From UHGV virus genome UHGV-0160579: a stretch of 36,299 nt of DNA. One strand, given 5' to 3'. Every line of letters starts with the position of its first letter. The first letter of the stretch is position 1. The notes beneath the pieces were generated by a model. That model ran no database searches. It was given only the letters and a program-made list of their open reading frames with translations, and was not told the DNA's origin. This DNA comes from a virus. The position numbers and the translations under genes are program-made. Shown here piece after piece: positions 13,420 through 19,975 of this stretch.

Positions 13420-13761
13420 ATGGATTATTCACAGTTAAGTGATTTTGAAATTAACAGAATGGTAGGAGACATAATTTTTAAAGGCCTTTGGGCAAGTAAA
13501 CCGGAAACATCAGGGAATAACACCAACAAATGGTATTACGGAAATGCTGATACAACTTTTGAGCCATTAAATCATTTGCCTGACTACTGCAATGATCCGA
13601 GCGCTTCATGGCCGATTATTGAGAAATACAGGATTTCTATCTTAGACCAGTTAACTGAATGGTGTGTGGATGCAAAAGGCGTAAGCCCAATATTTGATAC
13701 CAGACCTCTCCGCGCCGCCATGATTGTCTTTCTCCTGATGCAGGAGGCCAATAATGCTTAG
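13420..13761 (+). CDS. Hypothetical phage protein (about 113 aa), AT-rich
   Basis: ORF following ninE; start chosen at the ATG with the best RBS spacing (13420; alternative 13414); no motif recognised. Confidence 0.55.
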
Positions 13762-13948
13762 CCCATCTCAATCCCTTCAATACCTGAAAGAAAGCATAGA
13801 GCGGGCTTCAATGTGCACAGAGTGGATTCTATCTAGGTTTAGCGCATACAGAAGATTGCCGGTAAAGGGCATGCCAAGCAAGTCGATGCTGCATATGCAA
13901 AAGAATGCGCGCTGGAAGGTATGGCGAGAACACAGGTTATGTGGCTGA
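13754..13948 (+). CDS. NinF-like protein with a divergent C-terminus
   Basis: N-terminus [18 protein letters not shown] matches lambda NinF, but the remainder lacks the Cys-rich NinF tail I recall; good RBS (CAGGAGG). Confidence 0.5.
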
Positions 13949-13967
13949 AAGAGGGGGTTATTAAGGC

Positions 13968-14330
13968 GTGAATACCTACAGCATCACATTACCCTGGCCT
14001 CCGAGCAATAATCGCTATTACCGCCATAATCGCGGGCGCACGCACGTCAGCGCAGAGGGGCAGGCATACCGCGATAACGTCGCCCGAATCATTAAAAACG
14101 CAATGCTGGATATCGGCCTGGCTATGCCTGTGAAAATCCGCATTGAGTGCCACATGCCGGATCGCCGTCGCCGTGACCTGGATAATCTGCAAAAAGCCGC
14201 TTTTGACGCACTCACTAAAGCAGGTTTCTGGCTGGATGATGCTCAGGTCGTTGATTACCGCGTTGTGAAGATGCCTGTTACCAAAGGTGGGAGGCTGGAA
14301 CTGACCATCACCGAAATGGGGAATGAATGA
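13968..14330 (+). CDS. rusA: RusA Holliday-junction resolvase
   Basis: 120 aa, GTG start; matches E. coli DLP12 RusA ([46 protein letters not shown]...) with the catalytic acidic residues (DLDN, D..DD). Confidence 0.95.
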
Positions 14331-14467
14331 TGTTTGAGTTTAATATGGCAGAACTTCTTCGCCACCGCTGGGGGCGTCTGCGCTTATATCGTTTCCTCGG
14401 TTCTGTTTTGACCGATTACCGAATACTGAAGAATTACGCCAAAACCCTGACAGGAACAGGAGTATGA
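14327..14467 (+). CDS. Small protein (46 aa), YlcG-like by position between rusA and Q
   Basis: Hand-translated [49 protein letters not shown] with ATGA overlap to the rusA stop; size and position match DLP12 ylcG. Confidence 0.4.
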
Positions 14468-14552
14468 AGTCAGAGATAACAATCAACTAATACTGTTTTG
14501 TTGATTTTTGCTTGTAATTGGCGTTCTGGTCTGATTTTTGTGGAGTAAGTTG

Positions 14553-14936
14553 ATGCGTGATATTCAGATGGTTCTTGAGCGTTGGGGTGCGTGGGCGGCT
14601 AATAATCATGAAGATGTGACCTGGTCGTCCATTGCCGCCGGTTTTAAGGGATTAATTCCTTCAAAAGTAAAATCTCGCCCGCAATGTTGTGACGATGACG
14701 CGATGATCATTTGCGGGTGCATGGCCCGTCTGAAAAAGAACAACAGCGATTTACACGATTTATTAGTAGATTATTATGTATGTGGTATGACATTCATGTC
14801 ACTGGCAAGTAAGCATTGCTGCTCGGATGGTTATATCGGGAAAAGGTTACAGAAGGCTGAGGGCATAATTGAAGGGATGTTAATGGCATTAGATATCCGG
14901 TTAGATATGGATATCGTTGCTAATAATTCTAATTGA
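14553..14936 (+). CDS. Q: Late-gene antiterminator Q (non-lambda Q family, phage 21/82/DLP12-like)
   Basis: 127 aa from the ATG at 14553 (RBS TGGAG); Cys-rich zinc-binding region ([12 protein letters not shown]...C...CC); located between rusA and the lysis region. Confidence 0.8.
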
Positions 14937-14968
14937 TATGCAATTGTTTACTAAAAGTTATTAAAAAT

Positions 14969-14986
14969 GGGGCGTGGAAACGCCCC
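14969..14986 (-). terminator. Candidate minus-strand terminator downstream of the porin gene (GGGGCGT-GGAA-ACGCCCC hairpin with a minus-strand T-run)
   Basis: Inverted repeat followed on the minus strand by the complement of TTAAAAAT (14961-14968). Confidence 0.4.
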
Positions 14987-15073
14987 CAAAATAAAGGGTA
15001 ATATATAACAGAAGGTTTATATAGTAAGAAGCAAGGTAGTGCTTCTAAAGGAAGTGGCTTGAGGGCTCCACTT

Positions 15074-15112
15074 ATATGTTGCGGAGGCAAAGCCTCCCGC
15101 AACATATCTTTT
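15074..15112 (+). terminator. tR'-like intrinsic terminator downstream of Q (ATATGTTGCGGAGGC-AAA-GCCTCCGCAACATAT hairpin followed by CTTTTT)
   Basis: Long perfect inverted repeat with a plus-strand T-tract; the late promoter pR' is expected in the roughly 130 nt between Q and this element. Confidence 0.65.
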
Positions 15113-15124
15113 TCGTAAGTCAGA

Positions 15125-16207
15125 TTAGAACTGATAAACCAGACCTACAGCGACGATGTCGTCGGTATCAATACCAGCTGTTTTGGTAAACTTACTATCG
15201 TCAATTAAGTTGATTTTGTAATCAACAAAAGTGGACATGTTTTTATTAAAGTAGTAAGTAGCACCGACATCGACATACTTGACTAAGTCTCGGTCACCAT
15301 GAACACCAAGGTCTTTACCTTTTGACTGAAGGTAAGCAACAGATGGACGCAGACCGAAGTCAAACTGATATTGTGCTACTGCTTCAAAGTTTTGTGCTTT
15401 GTTTGCAATATGGTTATTACCAAAAACGGTCATATTCTGAGTTTCAGAATATGTGGTAGCCAGATAGATATTGTTCGCATCATATTTCAGGCCTGCAGCC
15501 CATACTTCCGCATTTTTGCCGGAGGCATTGAATTTGCTCTTACCATAGGCGACCTGACCGTCAGTGCGATCTGATTTAGCATAGGTTGCACCCACGCCGA
15601 ATCCTTCATACTCATAAGTAGTGGAGAAACCGAAACCATCACCATTGGCTTCAGTTACGTCAGTGCGGTCATTTTTACCCTGATACTGAGCAGCAAAGTT
15701 CAGGCCATCGACCAGACCAAAGAAGTCGTTGTTACGATAAGTTGCAACACCAGTAGTGCGACCAGTCATGAACACATCTGTTTGGGTCCAGGTATCACCA
15801 CCGAATTCTGGCAGAACGTCAGTCCACGCACCGATGTCGTATGCTACACCGTAGTTACGGCCGTAATCGATTGAGCCGTAATCACCAAATTTCAGGCCTG
15901 CAAATGCAAGACGGGTTTTGTCTTTGGAAGAACCTTGAGATTCAGCACGGTTGCCTTTGAATTCATATTCCCACTGACCGAAACCAGTCAGTTGATCGTT
16001 GATTTGGGTTTCACCTTTGAAGCCAAGACGGGCATAAGTAGTATCACCATCATCTGCATCATTAGAGGAGAAGTAGTGCTTGGCATTAACTTTCCCGTAT
16101 AGATCCAGCTTGTTACTGTCTTTATTATAAATTTCAGCTGCCTGAGCAGACATCGCCATCAGTACTGATGCAGCTACAGCAGAAATTGCCACTGTTAATT
16201 TTTTCAT
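15125..16207 (-). CDS. nmpC: Outer-membrane general porin (OmpC/OmpF family; NmpC/Lc-type phage porin)
   Basis: ATG at 16207 gives a signal peptide [23 protein letters not shown], porin-type beta-barrel sequence and C-terminal ...VAVGLVYQF; the track start at 16267 is an unsupported extension; located between Q and the holin as in DLP12 and PA-2. Confidence 0.9.
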
Positions 16208-16633
16208 TGTACGCCCTTTTTTTGAACTATTATTAAAAAATGATGTCACTGCGCGATAAATATTCATCTAATCAATGTGATTATTTCAAGATGTAAGTTT
16301 TAGTTTCTCATTTAATTTGTGAAGTAGATCTCTATTTTTATCTGAACCTTTTCTATCTAATCCTATTCATGGCTCTTGTCTGAACAAAAATAAATCTATT
16401 AGCTAATTTATATTAATGGCACTTATTTATAAGTGCTCTATAATTCTTTAGCTTAATTTAAACAAACTAAAAATAACATCGGAAATTATTAACTGGTTAT
16501 TTGTTGAAGTTTTCTTATGCATTTGTGGTGGTGTTTTGAACACTCGGTGGCATTCTCACAAATATCATTTAGTAGTTTACGTACGTAAAAAATTGGTTAT
16601 GCTGTTAAGAGTGGTTACTTCGTCACACAGCTT

Positions 16634-16667
16634 AAACCCGCCGTCGAGCGGGTTTTTCCATTTTTTG
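16634..16667 (+). terminator. Intrinsic terminator-like hairpin (AAACCCGC-CGTCGA-GCGGGTTT followed by TTCCATTTTTT) upstream of the holin
   Basis: GC stem plus T-tract on the plus strand in the AT-rich spacer between porin and holin. Confidence 0.5.
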
Positions 16668-16795
16668 AGTCTCGATATTAGCTGATAACCCAATACCTGA
16701 GTTATTCACTGACTCCGAATCTGTTACGTTTCTGCCTTTATTGCGATACGTAGTATCCCCTTAATTTACACCCGCTTTGTCTGCGAGGTGGGGTT

Positions 16796-17011
16796 ATGAA
16801 ATCCATGGATAAGTTAACAACGGGTGTCGCCTATGGTACCTCAGCAGGTAGTGCCGGGTACTGGTTTTTACAGTTGCTCGATAAAGTCACGCCCTCACAG
16901 TGGGCGGCAATAGGTGTGCTGGGTAGCCTGGTATTTGGCCTGCTGACGTACCTGACAAACCTTTATTTCAAGATTAAAGAAGATAAGCGCAAGGCTGCGA
17001 GAGGTGAATAA
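16796..17011 (+). CDS. S: Class II holin (phage 21 S-like, pinholin type)
   Basis: 71 aa; two transmembrane segments and a charged C-terminus; matches the phage 21/DLP12 EssD holin pattern ([25 protein letters not shown]...[35 protein letters not shown]). Confidence 0.9.
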
Positions 17012-17508
17012 TGCCTCCATCATTACGAAAAGCCGTTGCTGCTGCTATTGGTGGCGGAGCAATTGCTATAGCATCAGTGTTAATCACTGGCCCAAGTGGT
17101 AACGATGGTCTGGAAGGTGTCAGCTACATACCATACAAAGATATTGTTGGTGTATGGACTGTATGTCACGGGCATACAGGAAAAGACATCATGCTCGGTA
17201 AAACGTATACCAAAGCAGAATGCAAAGCCCTCCTGAATAAAGACCTTGCCACGGTCGCCAGACAAATTAACCCGTACATCAAAGTCGATATACCGGAAAC
17301 AATGCGCGGCGCTCTTTACTCATTCGTTTACAACGTGGGTGCTGGCAATTTCAGAACATCGACGCTTCTTCGCAAAATAAACCAGGGCGATATCAAAGGC
17401 GCATGTGATCAGCTACGTCGCTGGACATATGCTGGCGGTAAGCAATGGAAAGGTCTCATGACTCGTCGTGAGATTGAGCGTGAAATCTGTTTGTGGGGTC
17501 AGCAATGA
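17011..17508 (+). CDS. R: SAR endolysin (lysozyme, glycoside hydrolase family 24, signal-anchor-release type)
   Basis: 165 aa; N-terminal Gly/Ala-rich weakly hydrophobic SAR segment ([20 protein letters not shown]); T4-lysozyme-like catalytic region; overlaps the holin stop. Confidence 0.9.
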
Positions 17509-17999
17509 ACAGAGTAACCGCGATTATCTCCGCTCTGGTTATCTGCATCATCGTCTGCCTGTCATGGGCTGTTAATCATTACCGTGATAACGCCATTACC
17601 TACAAAGCCCAGCGCGACAAAAATGCCAGAGAACTGACGCTGGCGAACGCGGTAATTACTGACATACAGATGCGTCAGCGTGATGTTGCTGCGCTCGATG
17701 CAAAATACACGAAGGAGTTAGCTGATGCGAAAGCTGAAAATGATGCTCTGCGTGATGATGTTGCCGCTGGTCGTAAGCGCCTGCGGGTCAACGCCACCTG
17801 CCCCGGTACCGTGCGTGAAGCCACCGGCACCTCCAGCGTGGATAATGCAACCGGCCCCCGACTGGCAGACACCGCTGAACGGGATTATTTCATCCTCAGA
17901 GAACGGTTGATGACAATGCAGAAGCAGCTGGAAGGGGCGCAGGAATATATCCGCACTCAGTGCACTAAGCTGGCTTTTTATTATCCGGAGGATACATGA
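17505..17999 (+). CDS. Rz: Rz i-spanin (inner-membrane spanin subunit)
   Basis: ATG at 17505 (the track start at 17493 is GTG); N-terminal transmembrane segment, coiled-coil-rich periplasmic domain; Rz1 embedded in the +1 frame. Confidence 0.85.
17725..17910 (+). CDS. Rz1: Rz1 o-spanin (outer-membrane lipoprotein, embedded in Rz)
   Basis: RBS AAGGAG 7 nt upstream of the ATG; lipobox LVVSAC followed by a proline-rich mature region; fully embedded in Rz out of frame. Confidence 0.85.
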
Positions 18000-18220
18000 A
18001 GAAATTACGGGTAACCGTAGAACCTTTTCAGGGAACAATTCCGTTCCGTATTTTGCAGCGTGGTCGTGTTCTTGTTGAAGGTTCGTTCAGTGGTAAATGT
18101 ACGCAATTACACTCCCGGACCTTTCAGGTGAATGCCACGAATGAAGAGCTAACCGTGGAGTGTACGATGAATGCCGCTAAATGCCGCATGGTATCCGCTG
18201 CATTACAGCCAGTGTGTTGA
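17996..18220 (+). CDS. Hypothetical protein (74 aa) translationally coupled to Rz
   Basis: ATG overlaps the Rz stop (ATGA); RBS CCGGAGGA; no function recognised. Confidence 0.5.
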
Positions 18221-18576
18221 GCGACCTTATTATCCATGCGCGGTATTGTCGCCGTATTCTTGCATTAACAGAGACCGCAGCCCGACAGGGAGACTCCTCT
18301 GCGCGAGTGTGCGGGGATAATCAAAAACGATACACACCGGGGTTTACCGCGTTAACGGAGCGCGGCGTTGTCCCCTCATAGTCGCCTGTCCGGTGCGATG
18401 GTGGAAGAAGCCGGATGTTTATCACTATTAATTGATGACACAGAAATGGATTCATTGAATTTCAGCACGTTTTTGTATTCGTGTTATTGAACATCTGTTT
18501 ATTTTACTTTTAACATATTGATAATAAAAAGAGCTGTAAATCTTTAGATGAGTCGATTTTGTCCGGGGAAGTTCAA

Positions 18577-18717
18577 ATGGATTTTATGCTGACGGTTTCT
18601 GGTGTGGTTATCCTGTCCATTGCTTATACTGCAGATAAATATGGCTGCCATTTGTTATCACGTATTGGCGCTTATTGTTCGTTGATGCTGATTTTCTCGT
18701 CGCTTTTTTTTGAGTAA
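18577..18717 (+). CDS. Possible small hydrophobic peptide (46 aa)
   Basis: Hand-translated ORF MDFMLTVSGVVILSIAYTADKYGCHLLSRIGAYCSLMLIFSSLFFE with RBS GGGGAAG; lies in an AT-rich, otherwise non-coding stretch. Confidence 0.25.
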   Translation: MDFMLTVSGVVILSIAYTADKYGCHLLSRIGAYCSLMLIFSSLFFE

Positions 18718-18849
18718 GTTATATTAATTATAACAAATAATTTTCTGTGTTATTTTTTCAGGCTATCCCGTCAGAGGGGAAGCCTGTACTGCCGGGGAGC
18801 GAATGGAAAACTGATGTGTCCGGTAACTGCGTGTTCTGTGAACACCATG

Positions 18850-19035
18850 TTACTTAATTATGTAATTCATACCCGAACTCTCTGTTGACAGCCTTCTTCT
18901 GCAGGCTTCAATAACCCACGCTGAAAAGTTTCCTGAACCTTTCAGATCAAGAGCGATGTTAATTTGTTCAATCATCTGGTTTGGAAATCGGATGTTGCGG
19001 GTTGTTGTTCTGCGGGTTCTGTTCTTTGATGACAT
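18850..19035 (-). CDS. Small basic protein (61 aa), DUF3950/YlcI-like by position
   Basis: ATG with RBS GGGGAA; basic N-terminus (SSKNRTRRTTTRNIRF) suggests nucleic-acid binding; upstream of cos as ylcI is in DLP12. Confidence 0.45.
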   Translation of the reverse strand: MSSKNRTRRTTTRNIRFPNQMIEQINIALDLKGSGNFSAWVIEACRRRLSTESSGMNYIIK

Positions 19036-19429: not shown

Positions 19430-19949
19430 ATGAAGGTTAATAAAAAGAAACTTGCCGAAATTTTCAACGTGGATCCGCGAACGATTGAACGCTGGCAGTC
19501 TCAGGGACTCCCTTGCGTCTCCGGAGGTAGTAAGGGCGTTGAATCTGTATTTGATACCGCCATGGCAATTCAGTGGTATGCGCAGAGGGAAGCTGATATC
19601 GAAAATGAAAAACTCCGTAAAGAGGTTGAGGATTACAGGGCTGCCAGCGAGGCAGATCTCCAGCCTGGGACTATTGAGTACGAACGCCATCGACTTACGC
19701 GTGCGCAGGCCGACGCACAGGAGCTGAAAAATGCCAGAGACTCCGCTGAAGTGGTGGAAACCGCATTCTGTACTTTCGTGCTGTCGCGGATCGCAGGTGA
19801 AATTGCCAGTATTCTCGACGGGATCCCCCTGTCGGTGCAGCGGCGTTTTCCGGAACTGGAAAACCGACATGTTGATTTCCTGAAACGGGATATCATCAAA
19901 GCCATGAACAAAGCAGCCGCGCTGGATGAACTGATACCGGGGTTGCTGA

Positions 19950-19975
<26 letters not shown>
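19430..19975 (+). CDS. nu1: Terminase small subunit (Nu1 family)
   Basis: 181 aa; N-terminal winged-HTH region, C-terminal ~100 residues match lambda Nu1 (…[104 protein letters not shown]). Confidence 0.95.

Follow-up and report, generated by a model that had tools for sequence, protein, structure and literature searches.

The closest described relatives of the locus studied here are the nmpC porin gene of the cryptic prophage DLP12 in E. coli K-12, which is accompanied by ipeX, and the lc gene (protein 2) of the lambdoid phage PA-2. In DLP12, the genes run in the order rusA-ylcG-quuD, the porin gene on the opposite strand, and essD-rrrD-rzpD, and the lysis cassette is reported to be controlled by Q. 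The lc gene occupies the same place beside the lysis genes. PA-2 lysogens are the textbook example of host porins being replaced by a phage porin.

The small RNA IpeX is described in the review literature as 167 nt long, of DLP12 origin, part of the porin transcript and driven by the porin promoter. It is also linked to PA-2. IpeX is reported to repress OmpC and OmpF, and its mode of action is disputed: base pairing and Hfq dependence stand against no base pairing or Hfq independence. Castillo-Keller et al. are said to have located IpeX in the 3' UTR of the prophage porin in 2006. In K-12, the nmpC promoter (PnmpC) lies within positions -199 to -1, is active and starts at a G (5' RACE). It is regulated by Crp, OmpR and IHF, and is reported to be Crp-activated.

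We analyzed a window of 36,299 nucleotides, the virus genome UHGV-0160579, at the region between its Q antiterminator gene and its lysis genes. The locus is a known lambdoid-prophage porin gene of the nmpC/lc type with the attached sRNA IpeX; it is intact, real, ordinary and already known. Its best explanation is very probably an nmpC/lc-type lysogenic-conversion cassette of a lambda-like prophage, placed between Q and Q's late promoter.

The porin gene and its neighbors

The region contains the following features.

14553-14936, plus strand: Q antiterminator gene of the QuuD type, 127 aa (Pfam Phage_antitermQ, PF06530, E = 8e-54; PHROG 79)
14958-15124, minus strand: porin 3' UTR, the putative IpeX region, 167 nt that follow the stop codon and close with the terminator U-tract (K-12 homology and length)
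14960-14986, minus strand: predicted intrinsic terminator of the porin/IpeX transcript, hairpin 14969-14986 with a 7-pair stem (6 GC pairs), then ATTTTTAATA (terminator scan)
15074-15117, plus strand: putative intrinsic terminator after Q, hairpin 15074-15112 followed by CTTTTT
15125-16207, minus strand: porin gene, 360-aa precursor, an allele of the NmpC/Lc family (Pfam Porin_1; signal peptide encoded at 16139-16207)
16208-16572, no strand assigned: AT-rich upstream regulatory region of the porin, about 365 bp, 27.7% GC
16249-16289, minus strand: probable porin promoter, -35 TTGAAA at 16289-16284, -10 GAATAT at 16265-16260, start at G 16254 or 16252 (pattern search; exact hexamers putative)
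16315-16335, no strand assigned: CRP-like site TGTGA-N6-TCTCT, centered about 72 bp upstream of the probable start (identical to the annotated CRP site in the PA-2 lc record J02580)
16577-16612, plus strand: probable late promoter PR', -35 TTTACG at 16577-16582, -10 TATGCT at 16599-16604, start at about 16611-16612 (homology with Stx phages)
16634-16667, plus strand: predicted tR'-like intrinsic terminator, hairpin 16634-16655 with an 8-pair stem, then TTCCATTTTT (terminator scan), 23-56 nt past the probable PR' start
16796-17011, plus strand: holin (Pfam Phage_holin_2_1)
17011-17508, plus strand: lysozyme (Pfam Phage_lysozyme)
17493-17999, plus strand: Rz (Pfam Phage_lysis)
17725-17910, plus strand: Rz1 (Pfam Rz1)

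The open reading frames and the Pfam matches of the neighbors place the porin gene on the opposite strand between Q and an S21-type lysis cassette, as the original prediction had it. The phage-21-type holin-lysozyme-Rz cassette spans 16796-17999. The gene order of Q, minus-strand porin and S21-type holin also agrees with the predicted DLP12 nmpC or PA-2 lc arrangement. The Q gene is annotated as quuD in identical prophages, and the solved Q21 is a distant match to its product. The list of open reading frames gives this gene an upstream TTG start at 14538.

The minus-strand reading frame extends from 15125 to 16267, and we take its true start as the ATG at 16207, which is preceded by the Shine-Dalgarno sequence AAGGG at 16214-16218. 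PGAP calls the identical 1083-bp gene in an identical prophage. The in-frame ATG at 16267 is not taken as the start, since it precedes the probable transcription start. The protein matches Pfam Porin_1 (E = 2e-151) over profile positions 1-337 of 337, and is thus a full-length general-diffusion porin of the OmpC/OmpF type. The mature chains of the solved OmpC, OmpF and PhoE structures (PDB) align end to end with residues 24-360. From this alignment we deduce a 23-residue signal peptide, which ends in AQA and is followed by AEIYNK. At the C-terminus, the sequence VYQF provides the aromatic end residue for outer-membrane assembly. An OmpC/OmpF-family porin with an intact signal peptide had been proposed from the DNA, and the gene carries neither a frameshift nor a truncation.

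The alignments suggested with the original prediction were run against NmpC, Lc, OmpC and OmpF. The porin is 90.7% identical to K-12 DLP12 NmpC (with IS5 removed) and 90.7% identical to PA-2 Lc. The identity is 62% to OmpC, PhoE and OmpN (62.4% for OmpC) and 59% to OmpF. Its first 148 residues are the same as those of K-12 NmpC. The allele here is five residues shorter than K-12 NmpC, and the differences fall in five or six short patches, which by the OmpC/OmpF topology would be the surface loops L3-L8. PA-2 Lc carries a different loop allele, with 365 aa against 360 aa here. Moreover, the gene here is intact, whereas K-12 DLP12 nmpC has an IS5 near its 3' end that parts the porin promoter from the ipeX region.

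The chromosomal porins OmpC, OmpF, PhoE and OmpN share the Porin_1 fold family, the signal peptide and the C-terminal Phe with the protein here, and automatic annotation suggests that the gene could be the host's own ompC or a chromosomal paralogue. PGAP names it ompC, and the protein passes the NCBIfam 'porin OmpC' model with 521 bits (cut-off 484). However, this is a subfamily model and not an equivalog, and the protein falls below the PhoE and OmpF equivalog cut-offs. At 59-62% identity, the chromosomal porins are far from this phage-borne gene, which has Q and the holin gene of a complete lambda-like prophage as its neighbors and occurs in inducible phages. We consider a chromosomal origin extremely improbable; the broad subfamily model is the one test of OmpC orthology that the protein passes, and the identity to K-12 OmpC and the prophage location speak against it. 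The reading as a cassette of the nmpC/lc type is favored.

The probable porin promoter, its AT-rich surroundings and the distribution of the cassette

The region upstream of the porin gene is 94% identical to K-12 overall, with scattered differences, and the CRP sites annotated in PA-2 lc are identical here. By homology with PnmpC, the porin would be transcribed from the promoter listed above. A promoter scan with a threshold of 9/12 reported neither this promoter nor PR', as both score below the threshold. About 600 bp of very AT-rich DNA had been described upstream of the holin. An AT-rich stretch does exist, but it covers only about 365 bp; the other 223 bp, between this stretch and the holin, have 42.6% GC. 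The 3' flank of the porin has 39.4% GC.

The porin cassette is present in 2464 of 5426 complete E. coli genomes (~45%). Carriers include Nissle 1917, ABU 83972 and many UPEC/APEC strains. Many UPEC/APEC chromosomes, and inducible phages such as ev017 and PhiR57_1, share the whole stretch from Q through the porin to the holin at 100% identity, and 13 phage records encode the identical porin protein.

These data bear on the idea that the porin is a silent passenger. It would be quiescent, for example through H-NS acting on the AT-rich upstream region, would have little effect on the lysogen, and would persist by hitch-hiking or only for the sake of IpeX. Indeed, DNA of 27.7% GC would be a natural H-NS target. 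The title of one reference calls nmpC a quiescent porin gene in E. coli B, and another paper contends that the cell gains nothing from nmpC or even suffers from it. Copies disrupted by IS5 occur in K-12 and phage 434, and other genomes carry IS1 or IS5 insertions. On the other hand, the same intact reading frame recurs without change in hundreds of genomes and phages, and the allele differences form short patches with in-frame indels, unlike random decay. PnmpC transcripts are detectable in K-12 in glycerol medium. In the ExPEC strain UTI89, transcripts of OmpD, a porin of this type whose allele may differ, are seen and respond to micC deletion. A silent passenger is unlikely in our judgment, though it is the strongest rival to an expressed conversion cassette.

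The putative IpeX region and the hairpins

The 167-nt stretch at 14958-15124 is 96% identical to the intergenic region between nmpC and quuD of K-12 DLP12. It lies directly 3' of the porin coding sequence, has the length reported for IpeX, and ends in an intrinsic terminator. The RNA folds into five stem-loops with -53.6 kcal/mol (z = -7.1), and this stable structure is conserved. On this comparison, the stretch appears to correspond to IpeX, which the original prediction overlooked.

The P1-like phage P7 provides a divergent copy. Its nmpC product is 81% identical to the porin here, its 5' UTR is homologous, and an IpeX-like 3' UTR with a terminator follows. The context is unrelated: in P7, a plasmid prophage of the P1 type, nmpC is flanked by odaA and ssb. 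The homology is confined to positions 16269-14993 of our window, so that P7 shares neither the AT-rich upstream region nor the setting of Q and PR'. The hairpins of the IpeX region persist in this copy with some two-sided changes. Such changes keep the pair in 9 of the 57 predicted pairs, but all of them come from P7, the one divergent sequence, which makes for slender covariation evidence.

A search of Rfam over 13500-18500 (E <= 1) returned only a chance sub-threshold hit of sau-19 on the 15074 hairpin, with no sign that Rfam holds an IpeX family. The K-12 RefSeq record has no ipeX annotation. With neither an Rfam match nor a K-12 annotation, the exact placement of IpeX in the 3' UTR follows the reviews, the location attributed to Castillo-Keller et al. 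and the length match, and we take 14958-15124 as its putative position.

We then considered the reported targets. RNAduplex, given the whole of IpeX and the leaders of ompC and ompF, predicted implausibly long duplexes without a clear signal, and contiguous complementarity was counted in its place. IpeX positions 113-122 are complementary to ompC -21 to -12 over 10 nt, and 8 of 1000 shuffles reach as much. For ompF, the complementary stretch is 9 nt long and matches positions 122-130 to the Shine-Dalgarno region (58 of 1000 shuffles). The original prediction had paired the phage porin with repression of the host porins; this accords with the literature, in which the reported agent is IpeX.

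All three hairpins predicted on the two strands of the region were found. The region contains three terminator-like sites against 1.8 +/- 1.3 in shuffles. As this count is not above chance, the significance of the hairpins rests on their conservation. The 15074 hairpin has 15 pairs with one bulge, and its T-run is on the plus strand only. It folds with -22.8 kcal/mol (z = -3.7; none of 200 shuffles reaches this) and is conserved in K-12, and the minus-strand copy of its stem forms the first stem-loop of the IpeX region. By position and strand, we infer that the plus-strand transcript from Q stops at the 15074 hairpin, and the minus-strand porin/IpeX transcript at the 14969 hairpin.

The probable late promoter PR' and the cassette as a whole

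In Stx phages, a Q-PR'-tR' cassette gives rise to the sRNA StxS. Their Q gene is homologous to the one here, with about 75-77% DNA identity over the first 348 nt; the C-terminus here diverges after about 14885. The -35 element of the Stx-phage PR' overlaps the end of Q, whereas nothing promoter-like is found directly downstream of Q here. The homologous block lies about 1.64 kb away, with the cargo in between. This block (16573-16657) matches the sequence directly after Q in Stx phages, an early-transcribed block with a hairpin in which the PR' start has been mapped. It is also homologous to the sequence upstream of S in Shigella phage SfII, and it is 100% identical to K-12. The counterpart in Sakai Sp5, TTTACG-N16-TATCAT, agrees with the PR' start published there and with the 258 nt given for StxS; a uniform coordinate offset of 142 nt brings both the published start and the published 3' end in the Sakai Stx phage into line with the sequence features. 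K-12 DLP12 lacks 17 bp (16732-16748) located upstream of the holin.

On the strength of this homology, the most likely site of PR' is downstream of the porin, and its transcription would run away from that gene. The Q switch most likely works as usual, as in DLP12, with cargo between Q and its promoter. The Q protein belongs to a known antiterminator family. K-12, Stx phages and SfII all retain the 16634 hairpin, and no other terminator-like site separates PR' from the holin here. By pattern match and conservation, this hairpin is a predicted intrinsic terminator ahead of the late genes. It may be a weak terminator or part of a pause or loading site, because the 3' end of the Sakai Stx PR' transcript maps 258 nt downstream and not at the homologous first hairpin. 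Nothing ahead of the holin in our window corresponds to the second Sakai terminator at +258.

The three hairpins had been thought to insulate the antisense porin jointly from Q-dependent late transcription. They are all real and conserved, and the 15074 hairpin would stop unmodified plus-strand transcription from entering the porin in antisense. However, with the PR'-like block downstream of the porin on the plus strand, late transcription would begin beyond the gene, which leaves the porin outside the late operon by position. The T-run of the 16634 hairpin is on the plus strand, past the PR' start and facing the holin, so this hairpin is better viewed as a tR'-like target of Q than as a shield of the porin. 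The 14969 hairpin would act as a terminator for minus-strand transcription alone. In addition, polymerase modified by Q reads through terminators by definition, and hence no terminator could serve as insulation against it. We consider joint insulation highly improbable.

In SfII, the gap between Q and PR' holds a two-gene candidate defence system (PADLOC PDC-M53), which is also on the opposite strand. This leads us to a tentative reading in two joined parts, which we put forward as possible rather than probable. The gap may be a reusable cargo slot for protection of the lysogen against other phages, and the 15074-15112 hairpin may serve both strands, ending the Q transcript on one and, on the other, forming the 5' stem by which processed IpeX is delimited or protected. 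Two other candidates for comparison were rejected. In Lambda_2E9, Q is followed by a minus-strand Blc lipocalin gene, but a tR'-like terminator comes right after Q and no PR' block follows blc, which makes the arrangement a different one. The prophage NC-SV likewise integrates at icd, but its svsR sRNA lies in cI and is not related to this locus.

Based on the literature and on homology, we propose how the nmpC/lc-type cassette would work. The cassette would be read toward Q from its own sigma-70 promoter in the AT-rich, CRP-responsive region. One transcript would carry both the porin, with its Sec signal peptide, and the structured 167-nt 3' UTR, from which IpeX would be released to lower the production of host OmpC and OmpF. 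In a lysogen that expresses it, the phage porin would replace the host porins and alter permeability, and OmpC and OmpF would be lost as receptors for other phages and colicins. The terminator at 14960-14986 would stop the porin/IpeX transcript ahead of an antisense run into Q, and that at 15074-15117 would stop unmodified plus-strand transcription leaving Q. Q-dependent late transcription would start downstream of the cassette, where PR' and its tR'-like terminator probably lie (~16577-16667), and never cross it. For the phage's own receptor binding, we note that the corresponding end of J falls outside the window.

Nothing here is new in principle, and the locus matters mainly for annotation. 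Pipelines name the gene "ompC" or "OmpD" and leave IpeX unannotated, so that a prophage cassette can be mistaken for a host porin. Studies of permeability, phage receptors or the uptake of antibiotics can be misled by such a mix-up. That a lysogen may swap OmpC and OmpF for a phage porin with variable surface loops is worth knowing in phage therapy and wherever antibiotics enter through porins.

A porin of the NmpC/Lc type

Taken together, the genes of the window are those of a lambda-like prophage, with sets for recombination, immunity, replication, nin, lysis and head/tail functions. The porin locates between Q and the lysis genes.

14553-14936, plus strand: Q antiterminator gene (PF06530)
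16267 to 15125, minus strand: porin open reading frame (ORF scan)
16796-17011, plus strand: phage-21-type holin (domain match)
3' of the holin, plus strand: lysozyme, then Rz/Rz1 (domain matches)

The porin starts at the ATG at 16207, with an AAGGG ribosome-binding site 7 nt upstream, and PGAP calls the same 1083-bp gene in the identical prophage of strain ABU 83972. The ATG at 16267 was rejected as the start, since it precedes the putative transcription start and differs from the PGAP start. The Pfam Porin_1 profile aligns in full with the 360-aa product (E = 2e-151). Solved chains of OmpC, OmpF and PhoE align to it from residue 24 through the last residue, so the signal peptide should be cleaved after ...SAQA; the C-terminal residue is Phe, as usual. 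The full-profile match and the end-to-end alignment with solved porins revealed no frameshift or truncation in the ORF, in line with the original prediction of an intact OmpC/OmpF-family porin with a signal peptide.

The protein shares 90.7% identity with K-12 NmpC (IS5 removed in silico) and 90.7% with Lc of phage PA-2, and only 59-62% with OmpC, OmpF, PhoE and OmpN. The gene order equals that of the PA-2 record and of DLP12 (quuD / nmpC / essD-rrrD-rzpD), which supports the proposed nmpC/lc arrangement. The automatic name 'porin OmpC' derives from a broad NCBIfam subfamily model, and the porin scores below the PhoE and OmpF equivalog cut-offs. After 148 identical residues, it departs from NmpC only in five or six short patches. 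Two of these contain in-frame indels, and comparison with OmpC/OmpF topology suggests that the patches are surface loops. Several loop alleles occur in phages, at 100%, 94%, 91% and 81% identity to the window porin.

Within the coding sequence, the sense (minus) strand at 15431-15453 holds a terminator-like hairpin with a T-run (10 pairs, only 3 GC), probably a chance match. The plus strand at 16188-16194 reads GCCACTG, and codons 5-7 of the porin mRNA therefore read CAGUGGC, the complement of the RybB 5' seed. The nmpC mRNA is cited among the RybB targets in E. coli.

The late promoter and the hairpins around the porin

16289-16284 (TTGAAA) and 16265-16260 (GAATAT), minus strand: putative porin promoter by pattern; its transcripts would begin at a G, 16254 or 16252
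16315-16335: candidate CRP site, identical to the PA-2 record annotation, ~72 bp upstream of the putative start
16577-16582 (-35, TTTACG) and 16599-16604 (-10, TATGCT), plus strand: putative PR' by homology to Sakai, start near 16611-16612
14969-14986: hairpin with a T-run on the minus strand (terminator scan)
15074-15112: hairpin with a 15-pair stem and a single bulge, followed by CTTTTT on the plus strand alone (-22.8 kcal/mol, z = -3.7)
16634-16655: hairpin with a T-run on the plus strand, 23-44 nt past the putative PR' start

In K-12, the nmpC promoter is contained in the 199 bp before the start codon, and its transcripts, detectable in glycerol medium, start at G; it is described as activated by Crp and repressed by OmpR, IHF and MprA. 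The strongly AT-rich DNA expected around the porin is present upstream of it, but extends over 365 bp (16208-16572, 27.7% GC) rather than about 600 bp; the remaining 223 bp up to the holin have 42.6% GC.

The block at 16573-16657 is ~78% identical to the sequence directly 3' of Q in Stx phages and also has a match in Shigella phage SfII, located upstream of the holin. It is 100% identical to K-12, with variable AT-rich DNA adjoining it. The homologous block of the Sakai Stx2a prophage carries TTTACG-N16-TATCAT. For Sakai, the PR' start has been published, and the StxS precursor is 258 nt with a mapped 3' end. A uniform 142-nt offset on the paper's coordinates fits both ends, placing the start 7-8 nt past the -10 element and the 3' end in the T-run of a second terminator. 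By this homology, we infer the position of PR' in the window. The 1986 annotation of PA-2 lists a further 'CRP site', whose sequence is identical to 16610-16630, the first 20 nt transcribed from the putative PR'; Stx phages and SfII share the conserved block that holds it. Because it lies inside the early-transcribed part, it is likelier to belong to the Q loading region than to be a CRP site, and it may serve in Q binding or pausing.

The Stx-phage -35 element overlaps the 3' end of the Q gene. The window Q is homologous to Stx-phage Q up to ~14885, where the likeness ends; likeness to the Q of phage Lambda_2E9 ends near 14912. The last 8-17 Q codons thus seem to belong to the recombination joint with the porin cassette. 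Since the PR' block lies beyond the porin, ~1.64 kb of cargo appears to separate Q from its promoter, with the porin predicted to lie upstream of PR' and to point away from it. Q reportedly controls the DLP12 lysis cassette. At 16732-16748, upstream of the holin, 17 bp (CTGCCTTTATTGCGATA) are missing in K-12 DLP12, in an otherwise nearly identical leader.

All three hairpins named originally were found, but their proposed role, insulating the porin from Q-dependent late transcription, was misread. Q-modified polymerase ignores terminators and would start beyond the gene, so none of them can insulate the porin from such polymerase. The hairpin at 14969-14986 would instead end the porin/IpeX transcript and so protect Q from antisense transcription. 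That at 15074-15112, with its T-tract on the plus strand only, should stop unmodified transcription leaving Q; read on the minus strand, its stem is the first IpeX stem-loop. The only terminator-like site before the holin, 16634-16655, is likely tR', overridden by Q. Its strength is uncertain, because the homologous Sakai hairpin is not at the mapped 3' end. In the Sakai Sp5 prophage (869-890 of its locus), a hairpin that resembles a strong terminator, with a long T-run, lies only 23-45 nt past the PR' start, yet the published StxS precursor ends 258 nt downstream; short products may have been overlooked, or else termination there is inefficient.

The porin 3' UTR as the IpeX region

The original prediction overlooked IpeX, a DLP12 sRNA credited with host-porin repression. 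IpeX is reported to be 167 nt long, to be driven by the porin promoter within the porin transcript and then processed, and to lower OmpC and OmpF. Counted from the porin stop codon (15125-15127), the U-tract of the minus-strand terminator ends (~14958) after 167 nt as well, and the window 3' UTR shares 96% identity with the K-12 nmpC-quuD intergenic region, the two differing mostly in hairpin loops. On sequence grounds, the porin 3' flank corresponds to the IpeX region. An Rfam search gave no match for this region, and the K-12 RefSeq record carries no ipeX annotation.

The region folds into five stem-loops, the last being the terminator (-53.6 kcal/mol, z = -7.1 versus shuffles). In the 81% identical porin copy of phage P7, the homologous 3' UTR keeps the stems, some by two-sided changes; this covariation is thin evidence, because P7 is only one divergent sequence. 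Positions 113-131 of IpeX form a single-stranded stretch. Its complementarity to the ompC leader, immediately 5' of the Shine-Dalgarno, spans 10 nt (8/1000 shuffles), and that to the ompF Shine-Dalgarno region 9 nt (58/1000 shuffles). On the mode of action, published papers conflict about pairing and the need for Hfq.

P7 (1138-2448 of its locus), a P1-like phage, carries the nmpC-type porin together with a homologous 5' UTR and the IpeX-like 3' UTR. The surroundings are unrelated, with odaA on one side and ssb on the other. The porin transcription unit therefore seems to move as a module, without the AT-rich upstream region.

Distribution and the cargo between Q and PR'

Many UPEC, APEC and ABU chromosomes carry the 2.6-kb Q-porin-holin stretch at 100% identity, as do inducible phages including ev017 and PhiR57_1. 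The cassette alone (14937-16572, coverage of at least 80%) is present in 2464 of 5426 complete E. coli genomes, at identities of at least 99% in 655 of them, Nissle 1917 included.

Likeness to ev017 stops near 17935, within the Rz gene. The window holds only small ORFs without a Pfam match at 17996-18850, followed by a DUF3950 gene (18850-19035, minus strand) and Nu1 (19430-19975). In the prophage of ABU 83972, which is nearly identical elsewhere, an iss/bor lipoprotein gene lies on the minus strand after Rz.

The porin finding is real and was correctly named. The locus is a textbook lysogenic-conversion cassette that many E. coli genomes carry; for this allele, its expression, the replacement of host porins and resistance to phages are predictions.

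In Lambda_2E9 (1992-2574 of its locus), a tR'-like terminator comes directly after a related Q, and a Blc lipocalin gene on the minus strand comes next; this is other cargo in another position, after tR' and not before PR'. In SfII, the gap from Q to the PR'-like block holds two 'hypothetical' minus-strand genes (829-2443 of its locus), placed and oriented like the porin. They match the two components, A (2e-32) and B (3e-54), of PDC-M53, a candidate defence system in PADLOC. This pair hints, as a modestly new angle, that the gap between Q and PR' may be a general cargo slot for functions protecting the lysogen from other phages.
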